Below are positions 3,038-43,538 of a stretch of DNA of 64,000 nt, one piece after another. The position numbers and the translations under genes are program-made. Under the pieces are notes generated by a model, which saw only the letters and a program-made list of their open reading frames with translations, was not told the origin of the DNA and searched no databases. The DNA is taken from NCBI GenBank assembly GCA_022842595.1, contig JALHPF010000012.1, positions 37,358 to 101,357 on the forward strand, given 5' to 3'. This DNA comes from Rubrivivax sp. GTDB lineage: Bacteria > Pseudomonadota > Gammaproteobacteria > Burkholderiales > Burkholderiaceae_C. How positions within the stretch are numbered: position 1 is the first letter of the stretch; the number at the start of each line of letters is the position of its first letter.

Positions 3038-4260
3038 GGCTCGGCCAGGAACTGGCGTACCAGCGGGCACAGGATGGCCACGATCTTCGCGGCCTCGTCG
3101 TAGGTCAGGATCAGCGGCGGCACGAGGCGGATGACGCGGTCGGCGGTGACGCTGATCATCAGCCCGGCCTCGGCCGCGCGGCCCAGCAGCACGCCGCAGG
3201 GGCGGTCGAGCTCGATGCCGATCATCAGCCCGGCGCCGCGCACTTCCTTCACGCCGGCCAGCCCGGCCAGTTCATGGCGCAAGCCGGCCTGCAGCGCTTC
3301 GCCCACCTGGGCCGCGTTCTCGAGCAGGCCGTCTTCCTCGCAGATGCGCAGCGTCTCGACGCCGGCGCGCATGGCCAGCGGGTTGCCGCCGAATGTGGTG
3401 CCGTGGTTGCCTGGGCCCAGCACGTTCAGCGCCCGCGGGCCGCAGACGACGGCGCCGATCGGCACGCCCGAGCCCAGGCCCTTGGCCAGCGGCATCACGT
3501 CGGGCTGGATGCCGGCCCACTGGTGGGCGAACCACTTGCCGGTGCGGCCGATGCCGCACTGCACCTCGTCCAGCATCAGCAGCCAGTCATGGGCGTTGCA
3601 GGCCTGGCGCAGGCCCTGCAGGTATTCCCAGCGCGCCGGGTTGACCCCGCCTTCGCCCTGGATGGTCTCCAGGAACACGGCAACGATGTTCGGGTTGCTG
3701 CGGGCCGCGGCCTCGATCGCGGCCAGGTCGTTCATGGGCACACGCACGAAACCCTCGACGAGAGGGCCGAAACCGGCCTGCACCTTCGGGTTGCCGGTGG
3801 CCGACAGCGTGGCGATGCTGCGGCCGTGGAAGGCGCGTTCGTAGACGATGATTTCGGGCCGGTCGATGCCCTTGTCGTGGCCGAACTTGCGCGCGATCTT
3901 CAGTGCGGCCTCGTTCGCTTCCAGGCCGGAATTGCAGAAGAAGGCGCCGTCCAGGCCCGAGATCTCGCAGAGCTTGGCCGCGAGTTGCTCCTGCAGCGGG
4001 ATCTCGTAGTAATTGCTGGTGTGGATGAGCTTGGCCACCTGGTCCTGCAGGGCCGGCACCAGCTTCGGGTGGGCGTGACCCAGGGTGTTGACGGCGATGC
4101 CGCCCAGGCCGTCAAGGTAGGCCTTGCCGTTGACATCCCAGACCCAGCAGCCTCGGCCATGCGACAGCGCGATGGGCAGGCGCCCATAGGTGTTCAGCAC
4201 ATGAGGCATGGGGCGTGGCGCAGGGCGATCGAGCGCCTTGACGGGTTCGGGAGCATTCAT
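3034..4260 (-). CDS. argD: acetylornithine aminotransferase (class III PLP aminotransferase)
   Basis: 408-aa ORF with class-III aminotransferase motifs (FCNSGLEANEAALKIARK, LMLDEVQCGIGRTGKWFA). Sits immediately upstream of argF and is translationally coupled to it. An internal ATG (MPHVLNTYGR) is an alternative start. Confidence 0.85.
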   Translation of the reverse strand: MNAPEPVKALDRPAPRPMPHVLNTYGRLPIALSHGRGCWVWDVNGKAYLDGLGGIAVNTLGHAHPKLVPALQDQVAKLIHTSNYYEIPLQEQLAAKLCEISGLDGAFFCNSGLEANEAALKIARKFGHDKGIDRPEIIVYERAFHGRSIATLSATGNPKVQAGFGPLVEGFVRVPMNDLAAIEAAARSNPNIVAVFLETIQGEGGVNPARWEYLQGLRQACNAHDWLLMLDEVQCGIGRTGKWFAHQWAGIQPDVMPLAKGLGSGVPIGAVVCGPRALNVLGPGNHGTTFGGNPLAMRAGVETLRICEEDGLLENAAQVGEALQAGLRHELAGLAGVKEVRGAGLMIGIELDRPCGVLLGRAAEAGLMISVTADRVIRLVPPLILTYDEAAKIVAILCPLVRQFLAEP

Positions 4261-4392: not shown

Positions 4393-4698
4393 ATGACTTC
4401 TACCGCGCCGCGCCGCTACTACATCCAGGGCATCACCCTGCAGGGACGCACCTTCCGGCCCAGTGACTGGGCCGAGCGGCTGGCCGGTGCGATGTCCAGT
4501 TTCCGCCCGGCCGGTGGCCTGGGCGGCAAGGCAGCCTACATCGGCTATTCGCCCTACTGCGTGCCGCAGGTCATCGACGGCGTGAAGTGCGTCCTGGTCA
4601 ACGAGGCCTTGCGCGACATCGAACCGATGGCCTGGGACTTCGTGATGAACTTCGCGGCCGACAACGAGCTGAAGGTGGTGGACGCCGAATCAGCCTGA
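4393..4698 (+). CDS. small conserved protein, DUF3579-like
   Basis: Only the last 101 codons (MTSTAPRRYYIQGITLQGR...) of the 474-aa ORF 3274-4698 are outside argD antisense. This part has normal composition and is followed by a terminator hairpin. Family assignment is from memory of similar about 100-aa Burkholderiales proteins. Confidence 0.5.
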   Translation: MTSTAPRRYYIQGITLQGRTFRPSDWAERLAGAMSSFRPAGGLGGKAAYIGYSPYCVPQVIDGVKCVLVNEALRDIEPMAWDFVMNFAADNELKVVDAESA

Positions 4699-5161: not shown

Positions 5162-6718
5162 TTGAACCTCCTCAAGGCCGCCTCCACCGTCTCGCTGCTG
5201 ACCCTGGTGTCCCGCATCACGGGCCTGGTGCGTGAGCAGCTGATCGCCGCCAGCTTCGGCGCCAGCGCCGCCACCGACGCCTTCAACGTCGCGTTCCGCA
5301 TCCCGAACCTGTTCCGGCGCCTGTTTGCCGAAGGTGCCTTCTCGCAGGCCTTCGTGCCGCTGATGGCCGCCACTCGGGCGAAGGACGGCGACGCCGCCAC
5401 CGGCGAACTGATCGACGCCGTCGCCACTCTCCTGGCGTGGGCCTTGCTGCTGACCTGCATCGCGGGTGTGGCCGCCGCGCCGGCATTGGTCTGGGCCATG
5501 GGTTCCGGCCTGCAGGCCTTCGACGACGCGGTGGTGATGACGCGTGTCATGTTTCCGTACATCGGCTTCATGTCGATGGTGGCGCTGGCCGCAGGCATCC
5601 TGAACACCTGGAAGCGCTTCGCGGTGCCTGCCATCACGCCGGTGCTGCTGAACCTGTCGGTGATCGCCGCAGCCTGGTGGGGGGCGCCCTATTTCAAGGC
5701 GGAGGGCATCGAGCCGGTGTTCGCCCTGGCCGCTGGCGTGATGCTGGGCGGGGTACTGCAGGCCGCGGTGCAGATTCCGGCCTTGGCAGCCATCGGCCGG
5801 CTGCCTCGCATCGGGCTGCTGCCGGCGTCGATTGCGCGGGCCTGGCGCCACCCGGGCACGCGCCAGGTGCTGCGGCTGATGGCGCCGGCGCTGCTGGGGG
5901 TGTCGGTGGCGCAGATCTCGCTGCTCATCAATACCCAGATCGCCTCCCATGTGGCTGTGGGCGCGGTGTCCTGGCTGACCTACGCCGACCGGCTGATGGA
6001 ATTCCCCACCGCCCTGCTCGGCGTGGCTCTGGGCGTGGTGCTGCTGCCACAGCTGTCGGCGGCCAAGGGGCGGCAAGACGCCGAAGGGTTCTCCGACATG
6101 CTGGACTGGGGCCTGCGGCTGGTGCTGCTGCTGGCGCTGCCATGCGCGCTGGCTCTGCTGCTGTTTCCCACCGGCCTCGTGGCGGTGCTCTACCACTACG
6201 GCGCCTTCACCGCTGCCGACCTGGCGATGACCGTTCGCGCGCTGCAGGGCTACGGCGTCGGCCTTCTGGGGCTGGTGGCCATCAAGGTGCTGGCGCCGGC
6301 GTTCTACGCGCGGCAGGACATTCGCACGCCAGTGAAGATCGCCATCGGCGTGCTGCTGGCCACCCAGGCCATGAACCTGGTGCTGGTGCCCTGGCTGGGC
6401 CATGCCGGGCTGGCGCTGTCGATCGGCCTGGGTGCGCTCGTCAACGCCGGCCTGCTGTTGGGCGGCCTGCTCAAGCGCGGGGTCTACATGCCGCGGCCTG
6501 GCTGGCGCCGGTTTGGCTTGCAGGTGCTGGTAGCGAATGTCGCGCTTGGCGCGGTGCTGGCGCTGGCGGCTCAGGGCATCGACTGGGTCGGGCTGCAAGC
6601 TGAATGGGCCAAGCGGGTGGGTGCAGTGGCGGCGGTGCTGGGCGGCGTGGCACTGCTCTACTTCGGCGTCCTGGCGTTGCTGGGCCTGCGGCCGGGGCAG
6701 TTCGTGCGCCGGGGCTGA
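5162..6718 (+). CDS. murJ: lipid II flippase MurJ (MviN)
   Basis: Canonical N-terminus [25 protein letters not shown]...[22 protein letters not shown] and a multi-TM profile. The start codon is TTG at 5162. Confidence 0.9.
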
Positions 6719-38331: not shown

Positions 38332-39132
38332 ATGAACATGCTCACCGACGCCCTGCACATCCCCGACACCCAAAGCGCGCGCGACGAACGCCATCTGGCC
38401 ATCCAGCGTGTCGGCGTGAAGGACGTGCGCTACCCGCTCAGCCTTCGTGTGGCCGGACAGGTGCAGCAGACGGCGGCGCAATGGTCGCTGGACGTGGCGC
38501 TGCCGGCCGAGCAGAAGGGCACGCACATGTCGCGCTTCATTGCCTGGCTGGACGCCCTGGCGCTGTCGGGCGATGCGCTGGACGCAGCCGGCCTGCACGA
38601 ACGCCATGCGCTGATGCTGGCCAAGCTGGGCGCTTCTGAGGGCCGCATCGAAGCTGCCTTCAGCTTCTTCCTGCGCAAGCGCGCACCGGTTTCGGGCGTG
38701 CAGAGCCTGCTCGACTATCAAGGCCGCTTCGTCGCCGAAACACGCGCTGGCGCGACCACGGTGTTCACCGAAGTGGCCGTGCCGGTGAAGAGCCTGTGCC
38801 CGTGCTCGAAGGAAATCTCCGACTACGGCGCGCACAACCAGCGGTCACTGGTGACGCTGCGCGTGGAAGCCCTGCAGCCGGTCGAATGGCACGAACTCGT
38901 GCGCTTCGCCGAGGACGAGGCCAGCAGCGAGATTTGGCCGATGCTCAAGCGGGCCGACGAGAAGTGGGTCACCGAGCGTGCCTACGAGAACCCCAAGTTC
39001 GTCGAGGACCTGGTGCGCGACGTGGCGCTGCGGCTGAACGCCGACCCGCGCATCGGCCGCTACACGGTCGACGTGGAGAACTTCGAGTCCATCCACAACC
39101 ACAGCGCCTACGCGCGCATCGAGCGCGCCTAG
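38332..39132 (+). CDS. folE2: GTP cyclohydrolase FolE2 (type IB)
   Basis: KGTHMSRF and SLCPCSKEISDYGAHNQRS motifs. Confidence 0.85.
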   Translation: MNMLTDALHIPDTQSARDERHLAIQRVGVKDVRYPLSLRVAGQVQQTAAQWSLDVALPAEQKGTHMSRFIAWLDALALSGDALDAAGLHERHALMLAKLGASEGRIEAAFSFFLRKRAPVSGVQSLLDYQGRFVAETRAGATTVFTEVAVPVKSLCPCSKEISDYGAHNQRSLVTLRVEALQPVEWHELVRFAEDEASSEIWPMLKRADEKWVTERAYENPKFVEDLVRDVALRLNADPRIGRYTVDVENFESIHNHSAYARIERA

Positions 39133-40187: not shown

Positions 40188-40511
40188 ATGAGCCCAGAAC
40201 AAATCCTCGCCGAAATCCGTGAAGCCAACCTGTCGTACCTGATGCTGGCACAAAGCCTCATCCGCAGCGACCGTGAACAGGCCCTGTATCGGCTGGGTGT
40301 TTCGGAAGAAACGGCGGTGCTGATCGACGCGCTGACGCCGGCGCAGATGATGAAGATCTCGGGCGGCAGCACCCTGCTGTGCCGCTTCCGCATGGACGAC
40401 GACATCGTCTGGAACCTGCTGACGAGCCATGGCAAGGGCGCCGCCAACGACGGCCTGAGCCGTCTGCACGCGTCGATCCTGCTGGCCGGCCGCCACCGCG
40501 AAGCCGCCTGA
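40188..40511 (+). CDS. flhD: flagellar master regulator subunit FlhD
   Basis: ILAEIREANLSYLMLAQSLIRSDREQALYRLGVSEE...LCRFR. GGAG lies 7 nt upstream of the start. Confidence 0.9.
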   Translation: MSPEQILAEIREANLSYLMLAQSLIRSDREQALYRLGVSEETAVLIDALTPAQMMKISGGSTLLCRFRMDDDIVWNLLTSHGKGAANDGLSRLHASILLAGRHREAA

Positions 40512-40565: not shown

Positions 40566-41168
40566 ATGGCCCGCAACAAGAGCATCCTCACCGAAGCCAA
40601 GCAGATCGAACGCGCCGTCACGCTCATTCACCTGGGCGCGCGTCTGCAGGTGCTGGAAAGCGAAACCGACCTGAGCTACGAGCGCCTGTTGCGCCTGTAC
40701 AAGGAAGTGGCGGGCAAGAGCCCGAGCAAGGGCCAGCTGCCGTTCTCCACCGACTGGTTCATGACCTGGCAGCCGAACATCCATTCGAGCCTGTTCCTGA
40801 ACATCCACGAGTACCTGAACAAGGCCGCGGCGCTGGACGAGATCGACAACGTCATCAAGGCCTACCAGCTGTACAGCGAACAGATCCAGGCCCATGGGCT
40901 GGAGCCGCTGCTCAGCGTCACCCGCGCCTGGCGCCTGGTGAAGTTCGTCGACAACGGCATGCTGACGATGACCGAGTGCAGCAAGTGTGGCGGCCACTTC
41001 GTCACCCACCCGCACGAGATGGCGCGCCACTTCGTCTGCGGCCTGTGCAACCCGCCGGCGCGGGCAGGCAAGGGCAAGCTGGCCGGTTCGCTGCAGCTCG
41101 GGCGCAGCGCCCGCGACAGCGACTGTGAAGATGTTCACGCCGCGGCCCCGTCCCTGCACGCCCACTGA
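40566..41168 (+). CDS. flhC: flagellar master regulator subunit FlhC
   Basis: KSILTEAKQIERAVTLIHLGARLQVLESET... and zinc-site cysteines CSKCGGHF...CGLC. Confidence 0.9.
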   Translation: MARNKSILTEAKQIERAVTLIHLGARLQVLESETDLSYERLLRLYKEVAGKSPSKGQLPFSTDWFMTWQPNIHSSLFLNIHEYLNKAAALDEIDNVIKAYQLYSEQIQAHGLEPLLSVTRAWRLVKFVDNGMLTMTECSKCGGHFVTHPHEMARHFVCGLCNPPARAGKGKLAGSLQLGRSARDSDCEDVHAAAPSLHAH

Positions 41169-41190: not shown

Positions 41191-41218
41191 TCAAGCCTCG
41201 GGGCCCGGCGGCCGATAA
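41191..41218 (+). promoter_or_regulatory. sigma28 (FliA)-type promoter-like element
   Basis: TCAAG-N15-GCCGATAA, 23 nt after the flhC stop. The same word pair recurs four more times at flagellar gene 5' ends in this window. Confidence 0.45.
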
Positions 41219-41225
41219 GCCACTT

Positions 41226-41296
41226 GTACCGATTGCATGTCTCCTCCTGGCACAGTACTCTGTGCTTTCAACGGGCCCGATGGGCCCGTTTTTTTT
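41226..41296 (+). ncRNA. candidate sigma28-dependent small RNA (about 70 nt, predicted only)
   Basis: Runs from the expected TSS, about 7 nt after the -10 element, to the terminator. Contains the tctcctcc tract (41240-41247), hairpin GCACAG-tact-CTGTGC (41250-41265), and a terminator stem plus T8. No ORF. There is no expression evidence. Confidence 0.35.
41270..41296 (+). terminator. Rho-independent terminator downstream of flhC
   Basis: aaCGGGCCCgatGGGCCCGtt followed by eight T's in total (41289-41296). Confidence 0.8.
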
Positions 41297-41332
41297 GGTC
41301 GAGGCGTTGTCAGCGCGCACCGCGAGCCATCA

Positions 41333-41359
41333 TCAAGTCTGGGTCCGGCCGACCGATAA
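41333..41359 (+). promoter_or_regulatory. sigma28-type promoter-like element upstream of the HD-GYP-like gene
   Basis: TCAAG-N14-ACCGATAA, ending 10 nt before the first ATG of the ORF. Confidence 0.45.
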
Positions 41360-41368
41360 CCGAGGGGC

Positions 41369-42616
41369 ATGCGGGGCCCGGCCCCGTGCCATTCCGCCAC
41401 TTCAAGCCTCGTGAAACTTCAGCCGTTCTCAGCCCAGTACATCCTTCGCGACAAGCCGCTGCCTTTCGGGCTGCGCGACGCGACGGGCCGGCTGTTGCTG
41501 GCCGCAGGTGAGCGCATCGAGACCGAGCAGCAGCTGAGCCTGCTCGCCGCACAGAACGTGTTCGTCGACGAGTCCGAATCGGCCGACTGGCACCGCCGCC
41601 TGCAGGCCGCGATGGACCTGAAGATCCGCCAGGGCGCGACCTTGTCGCAGGTGGCCGCGGTCAGCATCGCCAACGAGGTACGTGAAGCGCGCCCGGCGCG
41701 CCCGCTGTCCCTGGCCGAGCAGTGGGAGGAAATGACCACCCAGCTCGACGCGCTGCTGCGCGACGTACGTGCCGACAGCGACTGGCAGCCCCGCCTGCAC
41801 GCCCTGCTGGCGCGTGCCCGCGCACTGCTGCAGCGCCGGCCCGACGATGCCCTGTACCTGGGCGTCTACGAGGCCAGCCACTCGGCGGAAAAGTACAGCA
41901 GCCACCACGCCATGCTGGTCATGCAGATCTGCGAGCAGACCGCTCCCATCCTGGGCTGGTCGAAGGACTGGACCGATGTGCTGAGCCTGGCCGCGCTGAC
42001 CATGAACGTGGGCATGCACCGCCTGCAGGACCAGCTGGCGCTGACCACCATGCCGCTGACACCCGCCACACGCGCCGAGATCGACCGCCACCCCGCCGTC
42101 AGCGTTGCGGTGCTGCGAGAAGGTGGCGTCGACAGCGCCTTGTGGCTGGAAGTGGTGCGCCTGCACCACGACGCCAGCGGCGCCGACCTGCCGCTGACGA
42201 GCCTGCCGCCGCCGCGCCAGCTGGCGCGGCTGCTGCGGCGGGTGGACATCTTCACCGCCAAGCTCAGCCAGCGCGCGACCCGGGCACCGATGTCGCCCGT
42301 GCAGGCGGCGCGCGAAGCCTGCCTGGGTGCCGGCGGCATGCCCGACGAGATCGGCGGTGCGCTGCTGAAGGCCGTGGGCCTGTACCCGCCGGGCAGTTTC
42401 GTGGAACTGGCCAGCGGTGAGATCGCCATCGTCGTGGCGCGCGGCCGCCGCGCCAACCTGCCGGTGGTGGCCAGCCTGATCGGCGCCAGCGGCAACGTGA
42501 TGATCGAGCCGGCGCTGCGCGACACCGTCGAGCGCCGCCACGCCGTCAAGGGCGCGTTGGCCTGCAGTTCGGTGAAGGTGCGGCCGCCCCACGAACGCCT
42601 GCTGGCGCTGCGCTGA
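41369..42616 (+). CDS. HD-GYP-like domain protein with degenerate catalytic motifs
   Basis: The C-terminal two-thirds follow the HD-GYP family outline: SHHAMLV..., LSLAALTMNVGM at the LHDIGK position, HHDASGADLP at the HHE..DG.GYP position, and the GLYPPGSFVELASGEIAIVV tail. The HD and GYP residues are replaced. Start is uncertain (ATG 41369 or GTG 41411). Confidence 0.7.
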   Translation: MRGPAPCHSATSSLVKLQPFSAQYILRDKPLPFGLRDATGRLLLAAGERIETEQQLSLLAAQNVFVDESESADWHRRLQAAMDLKIRQGATLSQVAAVSIANEVREARPARPLSLAEQWEEMTTQLDALLRDVRADSDWQPRLHALLARARALLQRRPDDALYLGVYEASHSAEKYSSHHAMLVMQICEQTAPILGWSKDWTDVLSLAALTMNVGMHRLQDQLALTTMPLTPATRAEIDRHPAVSVAVLREGGVDSALWLEVVRLHHDASGADLPLTSLPPPRQLARLLRRVDIFTAKLSQRATRAPMSPVQAAREACLGAGGMPDEIGGALLKAVGLYPPGSFVELASGEIAIVVARGRRANLPVVASLIGASGNVMIEPALRDTVERRHAVKGALACSSVKVRPPHERLLALR

Positions 42617-42701
42617 AGCCGGCCGCAGCGGCCAGGTCTGGCCGGCTGGCTGCAGGCTTCTCCGGCGATTGCTGCCGCCCTGCCGGCGGCACACTGCGTC
42701 G

Positions 42702-43538
42702 ATGAAGGCTGTGCCCACCCCTCTGGCCAAGCGCGCCGCCACGTCGGCGCGCGCGATGTCCGGCCCCGCCTGGGGCCGGCTGCGGCTGCCCTGGCCGCTG
42801 CCCGCCGTGCTGGCCTGGCTGCTGGCCGTGATGTTGTGGCGTGGCGGCCTGCAGATGGGTTGGCCGCCGGCCGTGGCCTGGGCTGCCGGGGTGGCTGTCG
42901 GCGCGGGGCTGGCCCTGGCCACCGAGGGGCGCTGGCGCCGCGCCATCGTCGCCTTGGGGTTCCCGCTGGCCACGTCGGCAACGCTGCTGTCGCTGGCCCA
43001 AGGCCTGGCGCTGCCACCCTGGGGCTGGGGTCTGGCGGCCCTGGGCCTGCTGCTGCTGTACCCGCTGGGTGCCTGGCGCGACGCGCCGTGGTTCCCGACA
43101 CCGCGTGGCGCGCTCGACGGCCTGGCGCAGGCCTGCGCCAGCGGCCCGCCGGCTTCGGTGCTCGACGCCGGCTGCGGCGTTGGCCACGGCCTGGCGGAAC
43201 TGCACTGGCAGTTTCCCCTGGCGCGGGTGCATGGCATCGAACGCAGCCGGCCGCTGCGCTGGCTGGCGGCCTGGCGCTGTCCCTGGGCGCAGGTGCGGGC
43301 CGGCGACATCTGGGTGGCGGACTGGTCGCGGCACGATCTGGTCTACGTCTTCCAGCGCCCGGAATCGATGCCGCGGGCCTTCGAGAAGGCCATGCGCGAA
43401 CTGCCGCCCGGCGGCTGGCTGGCGAGTCTGGAATTCGAGGTGCCCGGCGTGGCCCCGGTGCAGCGGCTGGCCGGCGCCCAGGGGCGGCCGGTCTGGCTGT
43501 ACAGGCAAGGCTCAACCGGGGCCGCAGCTTGCCGATAA
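42702..43538 (+). CDS. membrane-anchored class I SAM-dependent methyltransferase
   Basis: Hydrophobic Trp/Leu-rich N-terminal half with about 4 TM helices, then SAM motif I VLDAGCGVGHG and a post-I region. Start is ATG 42702 or 42669. Confidence 0.65.
   Translation: MKAVPTPLAKRAATSARAMSGPAWGRLRLPWPLPAVLAWLLAVMLWRGGLQMGWPPAVAWAAGVAVGAGLALATEGRWRRAIVALGFPLATSATLLSLAQGLALPPWGWGLAALGLLLLYPLGAWRDAPWFPTPRGALDGLAQACASGPPASVLDAGCGVGHGLAELHWQFPLARVHGIERSRPLRWLAAWRCPWAQVRAGDIWVADWSRHDLVYVFQRPESMPRAFEKAMRELPPGGWLASLEFEVPGVAPVQRLAGAQGRPVWLYRQGSTGAAACR
43512..43538 (+). promoter_or_regulatory. sigma28-type promoter for motAB
   Basis: TCAAC-N14-GCCGATAA, ending 57 nt upstream of the motA ATG. The final TAA of the -10 element is the methyltransferase stop codon. 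Confidence 0.6.

Follow-up and report, generated by a model that had tools for sequence, protein, structure and literature searches.

A putative sigma-28-dependent small RNA sharing the flhDC terminator in Rubrivivax and related Burkholderiales

Organisation of the flhC-motA locus

We analysed a 64,000-nucleotide (nt) stretch of Rubrivivax sp. DNA (contig JALHPF010000012.1, positions 37,358 to 101,357), here called the window, and in particular the region directly downstream of the flagellar master operon flhDC. In this region a sigma-28 (FliA)-type promoter, P1, is followed by a CU-rich segment, a short hairpin and an intrinsic terminator, Table 1. The four elements lie exactly where a preliminary description of the same DNA had placed them, and we consider them to be, probably, the gene of a small RNA (sRNA). 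The genes in the window are ordered flhC, RNA, HD gene, methyltransferase-like gene and motA, so the RNA lies in the flhC-motA interval and ends before motA.

The terminator is the sole strong terminator-like site found between positions 39000 and 45000 (9 pairs, 7 of them G-C), and the same scan gives no terminator-like site between the flhC stop (41168) and 41270. As no other terminator follows flhC, the flhDC transcripts are expected to end at the same hairpin and to carry the CU-rich segment in their 3' untranslated region (UTR). Folding of a 74-nt RNA from this region gives two hairpins and leaves the CU-rich stretch unpaired (-27.2 kcal/mol, z = -3.3, equalled by 0 of 200 shuffles). The stretch, referred to below as the seed, is unpaired in both the minimum free energy and the centroid folds, for the short RNA as well as for the longer flhDC 3' UTR, which agrees with its earlier description as unstructured. 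Its core, UCUCCUCCU, is complementary to Shine-Dalgarno (SD) sequences of the CAGGAGGAGA type, as had been pointed out for CUCCUCC.

Table 1. Features of the flhC-motA region and sigma-28-like sites in the window.
Feature	Position	Strand	Remarks
flhD	40188-40511	+	Pfam FlhD, E=1e-37
flhC	40566-41168	+	Pfam FlhC, E=3e-85; stop TGA 41166-41168, 22 nt 5' of P1
P1, sigma-28 (FliA)-type promoter	41191-41218	+	-35 TCAAG 41191-41195, 15-nt spacer, -10 GCCGATAA 41211-41218; sigma-28-like site 41191, 13/13, best in window, before the RNA
Predicted sRNA, ~71 nt	41226-41296	+	5' end predicted ~7-8 nt past the -10; 3' end = U tail
Single-stranded seed UGUCUCCUCCUG	41238-41249	+	contains tctcctcc 41240-41247; core UCUCCUCCU 41240-41248
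Hairpin 1, G-GCACAG/UACU/CUGUGC-U	41249-41266	+	six-pair stem-loop 41250-41265: GCACAG 41250-41255, loop UACU, CUGUGC 41260-41265
U-rich linker UUUC(A) joining both hairpins	41266-41271	+	UUUC/UUUCA is the commonest form in the 100-sequence alignment
Intrinsic terminator AACGGGCCC/GAU/GGGCCCGUU	41270-41296	+	stem-loop 41270-41290; 9-bp stem, 3-nt loop, T8 ending at 41296
P2, second sigma-28-type promoter TCAAG-N14-ACCGATAA	41333-41359	+	3' of the terminator; sigma-28-like site 41333, predicted to serve the downstream HD-domain gene
HD-domain gene	ORF 41369/41402-42616	+	HD_5 match weak, E=1e-4
Sigma-28-like site	43512		before motA
Sigma-28-like site	45493		before cheY-like gene
Sigma-28-like site	55988	-	before flgM-like gene

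Conservation of the RNA body

To describe the conservation we used 80 genomic loci picked by the FlhC protein alone, 78 of which are assessable. They come from Rubrivivax, Ideonella, Aquabacterium, Leptothrix, Methylibium, Rhizobacter, Roseateles, Mitsuaria, Caldimonas and related metagenome-assembled genomes. Only this set is unbiased for the conservation of the seed, as our alignment A1 was chosen via the motif and the metagenome copies were collected with a 17-mer. The motif [TC]CTCCTCC is found 7-172 nt past the flhC stop in 56 of the 80 loci, typically about 50 nt before a T run.

A covariance model, R1, was built from the relatives. It matches once per locus and on the flhC strand, with 42-90 bits, in 62 of the 78 assessable genomes. 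In the 64-kb window there is a single match, at 41232-41297 (72.2 bits, E ~4e-15, the E-values of R1 being from a shortened calibration). A scan of metagenome contigs with the 17-mer gave 71 further full elements that match R1, and the RNA body is known from more than 130 sequences overall. The core UCUCCUCCU is identical in 56 of the 64 elements of the FlhC-selected loci and 1-2 nt off in the remainder. Where the element is missing, another gene in most cases adjoins the stop codon of flhC (Roseateles, Mitsuaria, some Methylibium). The carriers include the cultured strains Rubrivivax albus ICH-3 (L011), R. gelatinosus DSM 1709 (L024, in which the promoter is weaker), Aquabacterium parvum B6 (L062), Ideonella oryzae NS12-5 (L060) and Caldimonas mangrovi S2-27 (L038, promoterless).

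R1 is specific, because about 40% of the exact 17-mer matches in metagenomes and all 12 viral 16-mer matches fail it. A phage or mobile origin was rejected, given that 12 viral contigs have the 16-mer and none of them has the element. A blastn search against plasmids and megaplasmids returned chance matches to the terminator and nothing else. The spacers between flhC and motA in Ralstonia, Cupriavidus, Paraburkholderia and E. coli gave no homologue.

The flhC-motA spacer of a Ralstonia solanacearum megaplasmid (L201, 3059-3509) is 450 nt long and has no R1 match. It contains two consecutive terminator-like hairpins with T runs, at about 3225-3258 and 3280-3312, and may hold unrelated sRNAs in the same slot.

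The structure is supported by covariation in an alignment of 100 sequences, 99 of them distinct. There, 97.5% of the cells are paired and 118 cells show a double change, a number that 0 of 500 shuffles reach. Nine of the 14 pairs have changed on both sides, and no shuffled or slid register approaches this. Most of the covariation is held by the terminator stem, in which seven of nine pairs have changes on both sides. In hairpin 1 the four core pairs are retained in 100% of the cells and the closing pair is G-U, G-C, A-U or C-G; the changes are few, compensatory or wobble, with A-U replaced by G-C on both sides in two sequences. The loop of this hairpin is a variable pyrimidine-rich tetraloop. 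Its arms (GCACAG/CUGUGC) are 95-98% identical across genera, which is beyond the needs of pairing; they may form a protein-binding site or extend the seed. Directly 5' of the seed there are about eight semi-conserved nucleotides (uUGCuuG), and the interval between the promoter and the seed is otherwise variable.

As the CU tract and the sequence of hairpin 1 are conserved, the element is much more than a terminator. According to these alignments, both the 9-nt single-stranded CU tract and the hairpin sequence are under strong purifying selection. The comparative data favour an sRNA over a mere terminator, and they describe what looks like a conserved RNA family in the Rubrivivax-Ideonella-Leptothrix-Aquabacterium group of Burkholderiales. 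The promoter word is conserved before most copies, both hairpins are conserved among the aligned relatives and the pairing covaries, as would be expected if the sRNA proposed in the preliminary description exists.

Linkage of the sigma-28 promoter to the RNA

The word TCAAG-N13-16-CCGATAA occurs three times in the window, compared with 0.00 expected from shuffles, and the match before the RNA can hardly be random, as had been argued earlier. A looser scan (at least 11/13) finds exactly five sigma-28-like sites, Table 1. These five sites also agree with the earlier statement that the same word pair precedes motA, cheY, flgM and the next gene. From this match P1 is predicted to be functional, and its transcription to depend on FliA.

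Promoters in the relatives were scored by a plain mismatch count against TCAAG-N14-16-GCCGATAA in the 82 nt 5' of the seed, with a threshold of at least 10/13. Such a promoter precedes 43 of the 64 unbiased elements, compared with 3.6% of random segments of the same loci. When the metagenome copies are added it is found before 69% of 104 elements and in 3.3% of the controls. The consensus across copies is CTCAAG-N14/15-GCCGATAA, with a spacer of 14 or 15 nt, and the distance from the end of the -10 to the seed is 20-35 nt (mode 29). The base 5' of TCAAG, which does not enter the score, is a C in 91% of 74 promoters.

A second sigma-28-like site is present at most 220 nt 3' of the terminator in 52% of the 104 elements, compared with 11.5% of the controls, and in several loci it lies directly before motA. 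With a second sigma-28 promoter after the terminator, read-through from P1 would not be required for the downstream genes.

In two loci the RNA is separated from its usual neighbour. In L138 a GGDEF gene takes the place of flhC, and the order is TGAAG-N14-GCCGATAC (11/13), RNA, TCAAG...GCCGATAA and motA. In L020 flhC is followed by a methyltransferase-like gene and by two tandem, diverged copies of the RNA (5583-5651 and 5850-5915, seed ACUCCUCCGG), the second of which is preceded by TCCAG-N15-GTCGATGA (10/13) and immediately followed by a sigma-28 promoter and motA. In contrast, none of the five copies in non-flagellar contexts (L087, L118, L158, L183, L162) has a sigma-28-like promoter, their best sites reaching 7-8/13. 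Because the promoter is kept near motA in L138 and L020 and missing from the five non-flagellar copies, the predicted promoter tracks the flagellar context while the RNA body is constant.

Two of the non-flagellar copies, L183 (1414-1480, minus strand) and L162 (2149-2218, minus strand), with R1 scores of 71 and 56 bits, are on metagenome contigs of lower GC content. There the RNA directly follows glyA, which encodes serine hydroxymethyltransferase and has thyA further upstream, and it precedes a gene for a 363-420-residue membrane protein. The hydroxymethyltransferase of this lineage has the motif ELIPSENYVS, unlike typical Betaproteobacteria. The copy in L087 (2940-3004) is an orphan flanked by an epimerase-like gene and by a convergent PEP-CTERM gene, with no flagellar genes nearby. 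Some genomes may thus carry extra copies of the RNA, as is the case in the Burkholderia family RF02278 discussed below.

In another locus, L010 (about 4623-4671), the sigma-28 promoter is 56 nt 5' of the seed, and the interval contains an additional hairpin (ACCGAAACC...GGTTTCGGT) together with a T6 run. This is a longer or differently processed variant.

Within the window, TCAAGCCTCG of P1 (41191-41200) recurs exactly at 41402-41411, which lies in the 5' end of the ORF for the HD-domain protein. The spacer and -10 segments of P1 and P2 (41200-41218 and 41341-41359) are 79% alike. The repeat and the likeness suggest that the promoter module was locally duplicated.

Comparison with known RNAs

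The sigma-28-dependent flagellar sRNAs of E. coli are UhpU, MotR, FliX and FlgO, and MotR starts in flhC and ends before motA (PMC10578931). In the E. coli locus the coding sequence of flhC contains TAAA-N15-GCCGATAT, a terminator precedes motA by about 70 nt, and MotR has a length of about 95 nt. Like MotR, the RNA described here has a sigma-28-type promoter at the flhC 3' end, would be short, of the late flagellar class and end at an intrinsic terminator before motA, and this terminator also closes flhDC. A sigma-28 consensus promoter (13/13) stands directly 5' of the RNA, and the RNA is directly before motA in L017, L043, L045, L138 and others. However, R1 has no match in the flhC-motA locus of E. 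coli (L204), and MotR does not have a CU-rich seed. Further, P1 lies past the flhC stop and not inside flhC, motAB-cheAW has no second promoter and needs read-through of the MotR terminator whereas here a second sigma-28 promoter follows the terminator, and the bacteria are Betaproteobacteria, as opposed to some Enterobacteriaceae for MotR. The echo of MotR noted in the preliminary description therefore holds for the flhC-motA slot and the type of promoter; the two RNAs are unrelated in sequence and structure.

In layout the RNA resembles the double-hairpin or toxic sRNAs of Burkholderia cenocepacia (RF02278: ncS03, ncS05, NcS27, ncS62; PMC4603805, PMC5688073, PMC10987360). These have CU-rich unpaired stretches complementary to ribosome-binding sites, and overexpression of NcS27 attenuates growth (PMC5688073, PMC10987360). 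Both types occur in Burkholderiales, have a length in the range of 57-92 nt and consist of two hairpins, the second being a U-tailed terminator, with unpaired CU-rich sequence complementary to ribosome-binding sites. The RF02278 model aligns over positions 1-64 of 64 with the same segment lengths: a 5' UGUCUCC, about 22-23 nt that include hairpin 1, a UUCA linker and the terminator. However, the score of 24.4 bits (at 41238-41297) falls short of the gathering score, which is 50, and the alignment passes over hairpin 1 as a local end. The copy in L162 scores 23.6 bits against RF02278. There is no Rfam match at gathering level in the whole window or in 25 relatives (17 + 8), and RF02278 is not listed at E<=10 for the eight relatives. 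The seed may differ too. We find one long CU-rich, unpaired 5' stretch, UCUCCUCCU, and in the place of a second one only a pyrimidine-biased tetraloop (such as UUCU, UCCC or ACCU), whereas RF02278 has two CU-rich stretches. The Burkholderia RNAs are dispersed over the genome in 3-5 copies that share another upstream motif, whereas the RNA described here has a fixed flagellar locus and a sigma-28 promoter. No flagellar link of the Burkholderia double-hairpin RNAs is reported in the literature.

A similar likeness is seen to Bp1_781/NcS02 (RF02423), an sRNA of 198-230 nt whose last ~60 nt consist of GGUCUCCUC, a hairpin, a U-rich linker and a terminator. This 3' domain can be aligned to the element both in the window and in six further loci (L001, L022, L043, L046 and L087 among them). 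The scores of 17-28 bits stay below the gathering score of 80, however, nothing in the element corresponds to the 5' two-thirds of Bp1_781, and the genomic location differs. The earlier remark of being unaware of an annotated counterpart in Burkholderiales needs correction, since a near counterpart exists in the layout common to RF02278 and to the last part of Bp1_781/NcS02, with weak matches below threshold. We regard the RNA as representing, on present comparisons, a new family that would work like RF02278 and other CU-rich anti-SD sRNAs. It may be a distant relative of RF02278 and is not a demonstrated member of it.

DapZ and MicL of enterobacteria are sRNAs embedded in 3' UTRs that have their own promoter and a terminator common to the mRNA. 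The RNA resembles them in the promoter at or after the end of the coding sequence, in the terminator taken from the upstream mRNA and in the seed located in the 5' part. It differs in being carried by the mRNA of the flagellar master operon and in having a promoter predicted to be of the sigma-28 type. In Campylobacter jejuni, CJnc170 is reported to be a FliA-dependent sRNA within the flagellar hierarchy (PMC11187230). Both RNAs would be flagellar and of the sigma-28 class (by prediction in our case), and they are unrelated in sequence, locus and phylum. In the literature searched, no report of an sRNA at this position in Betaproteobacteria came up.

Proposed function

Taken together, we consider it likely, with a probability of about 65%, that the element is the gene for a ~71-nt FliA-dependent, Hfq-type, anti-SD sRNA that shares the terminator of flhDC. 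Its terminator is common to the flhC mRNA and P1 follows the end of flhC, and the locus is best described as a predicted 3'-UTR-embedded sRNA with its own promoter and possibly a dual biogenesis. When the hook-basal body is complete and sigma-28 (FliA) is active, the polymerase would start at P1 and stop about 70 nt further on at the terminator. The flhDC mRNAs would end at the same terminator, so that the RNA would also be embedded in their 3' UTR and could be released from it by processing.

The product would have a free 5' region with the near-invariant UCUCCUCCU, the sequence-conserved hairpin, the UUUC linker and the U-tailed terminator. In Hfq-dependent base-pairing sRNAs an unpaired 5' seed is usually followed by an internal hairpin, a U-rich linker and a U-tailed terminator. 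By analogy, the UUUC linker is presumably a feature of an Hfq module, and the RNA is predicted to bind Hfq. The sRNA would most likely act in trans by pairing with the SD regions (..AGGAGGAGA..) of several mRNAs, lowering their translation. Such pairing would couple late flagellar assembly to post-transcriptional control.

Several observations weigh against this proposal. About 15% of the relatives (L037, L055, L056, L058, L065, L038, L043 and L030) lack a recognisable sigma-28 promoter, and their element begins 8-45 nt past the flhC stop. The RNA in these genomes may be present only as the flhDC 3' UTR or as a processed fragment. The covariation of the terminator is by itself expected of any terminator. 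The conservation of hairpin 1 beyond its pairing might mean a protein-binding site or another function and not a pure seed-plus-scaffold arrangement. Finally, no conserved target was found in scans of the 64-kb window or of the loci with 4-kb flanks. In the GC-rich window, duplex scans with 30-nt and 14-nt 5' regions gave noise apart from the self-complement. Scans for k-mers in the window returned just flhA (GCCAGGAG, 47911) and a 7-mer across the start codon of motA. The flhA site is the best, and the only 8-nt, match to a ribosome-binding site in the window, and it is not conserved in nine other loci. The complementarity to the flhC ribosome-binding site spans 6 nt in the window, and genomes that carry the RNA do not surpass those lacking it in this respect. 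The sigma-28-dependent sRNA of about 70 nt of the preliminary description is backed by the conserved RNA body, its covariation and the conserved promoter, whereas a free-standing gene is not what we find, given the shared flhDC terminator and the promoterless relatives.

Alternative explanations

The same facts can be read as an flhDC terminator with a cis-acting 3' UTR that tunes the output of FlhDC, the sigma-28 word being secondary. The CU-rich stretch would then fold back on the SD sequence of flhC or flhD, or serve as an entry site for Hfq or an RNase. A precedent is the icaR 3' UTR of Staphylococcus aureus, which folds back onto its own SD sequence. With no terminator ahead of it after the flhC stop, the element would be part of every flhDC mRNA, and it lies directly after flhC in 61 of 68 assessable metagenome copies and in all genome copies except L020. 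The promoterless relatives fit as well, and the flhC ribosome-binding sites often read CAGGA(C)GGAGA or CCAGGAG. Of four neighbouring genes flhC also has the best mean duplex energy (-12.5 kcal/mol, compared with -10.1 for flhD and -7.4 for motA). However, the promoter stands at a fixed distance in about 69% of the copies, the RNA occurs with a sigma-28 promoter in L138, which has no flhC upstream of it, and in L020, where it follows another gene, and L087, L183 and L162 carry it in non-flagellar contexts. As the complementarity to the flhC site is modest and independent of the RNA, and the RNA occurs apart from flhC, we do not favour a purely cis role and consider it unlikely; a cis function is compatible with a trans-acting sRNA and does not exclude it.

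Alternatively, P1 could mainly feed the HD gene and motA by regulated read-through, the element being an attenuator or leader of the downstream motility genes and the short RNA a by-product. The element is always upstream of, and in the same orientation as, the HD gene, the methyltransferase-like gene and motA, and motA follows directly in L017, L043, L045, L098, L101, L104, L141, L169 and L181. In E. coli the read-through of MotR feeds motAB-cheAW (PMC10578931). We consider this explanation quite improbable here. The second sigma-28 promoter past the terminator, present in the window (41333-41359) and in about half of the copies, would make read-through unnecessary, the terminator is strong (9 bp, T8) and no anti-terminator pairing that involves the seed is predicted in the folds of the RNA and of the 3' UTR. 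Attenuation also leaves the invariant 9-nt CU-rich single strand unexplained. The preliminary description had itself offered, as its alternative, an attenuated extra promoter for the downstream gene, and this is unnecessary in most loci given the second promoter.

Finally, we see virtually no chance that the region encodes a small protein, either from the ATG at 41237 (40 residues, plus strand) or from short minus-strand ORFs. ORFs of 40-69 residues do overlap the region and AGGAGGAGAC precedes an ATG on the minus strand. However, only about 6 of 56 relatives retain the ATG at 41237, the others having ACG, TCG, TTG or CTG, and the loop and stem lengths differ by indels that are not multiples of three. 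The plus-strand ORF would also cross the terminator and P2, and on the minus strand the ATG is replaced by GTG in relatives, followed by a stop after two codons. The earlier view that no plausible ORF fits here is therefore upheld, the overlapping 40-residue frame notwithstanding.

Two further candidates were rejected. The invariant CTGGCAC resembles part of a sigma-54 promoter, but in the alignment the GC is 15 nt, not 12, past the first G of the GG. As the length of the loop varies among the relatives there is also no fixed -24/-12 spacing. A bidirectional terminator that serves a minus-strand gene is excluded by the absence of a minus-strand T run, and both flanking genes are on the plus strand.

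Going beyond the flagellar sRNA favoured above, the different contexts could be united in a single model, which we regard as speculative and rather doubtful. One portable RNA body (the UCUCCUCCU seed, the GCACAG hairpin and the terminator) would receive different inputs in each lineage, acting as a "plug-in" anti-SD regulator whose regulon is set by the promoter. In the Rubrivivax group the sigma-28-driven RNA in the flhDC 3' UTR would close a loop from the last stage of assembly to translation. The targets of this loop would be the master operon, in cis or in trans, or many mRNAs with strong SD sequences, as a motility-to-metabolism brake like NcS27. In the unrelated lineage of lower GC content the same body would act after glyA, without a sigma-28 promoter.

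Significance

The description of sigma-28-dependent sRNAs is recent (E. coli 2023, PMC10578931; Campylobacter 2024, PMC11187230), and it reveals a post-transcriptional layer of the flagellar cascade. To these our analysis adds an RNA family of more than 130 members that is neither annotated nor represented in Rfam. It occupies the same flhC-motA slot in a different bacterial class, with an unrelated sequence and an anti-SD seed. It would therefore extend the principle of MotR to another class via an unrelated RNA. As read from the genomes, this points to a recurrent design principle, that is a late-stage sRNA at the boundary of the master operon and the motor genes. The work also supplies a covariance model and a natural series of contexts, in which the promoter is present or absent and the RNA is duplicated, detached from flhC or in a non-flagellar setting. 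Finally, it connects the poorly understood toxic or double-hairpin sRNAs of Burkholderia with a defined, though predicted, regulatory input.

Neighbouring genes and other observations

In the window, two genes (41369-43538) separate the RNA from motA, one for the HD-domain protein and one for a membrane methyltransferase-like protein. These two genes vary among the relatives, in which both, one or neither is present. In Roseateles and Mitsuaria the methyltransferase-like gene adjoins flhC and the RNA is absent. The HD gene starts either at the ATG 41369 or at the GTG 41402, and it may be nearly leaderless.

L056 contains, at 5710-5793, an 84-nt near-perfect hairpin that is palindromic on both strands. 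It gives weak matches to plant miRNAs in Rfam and resembles an intergenic repeat of the REP type.

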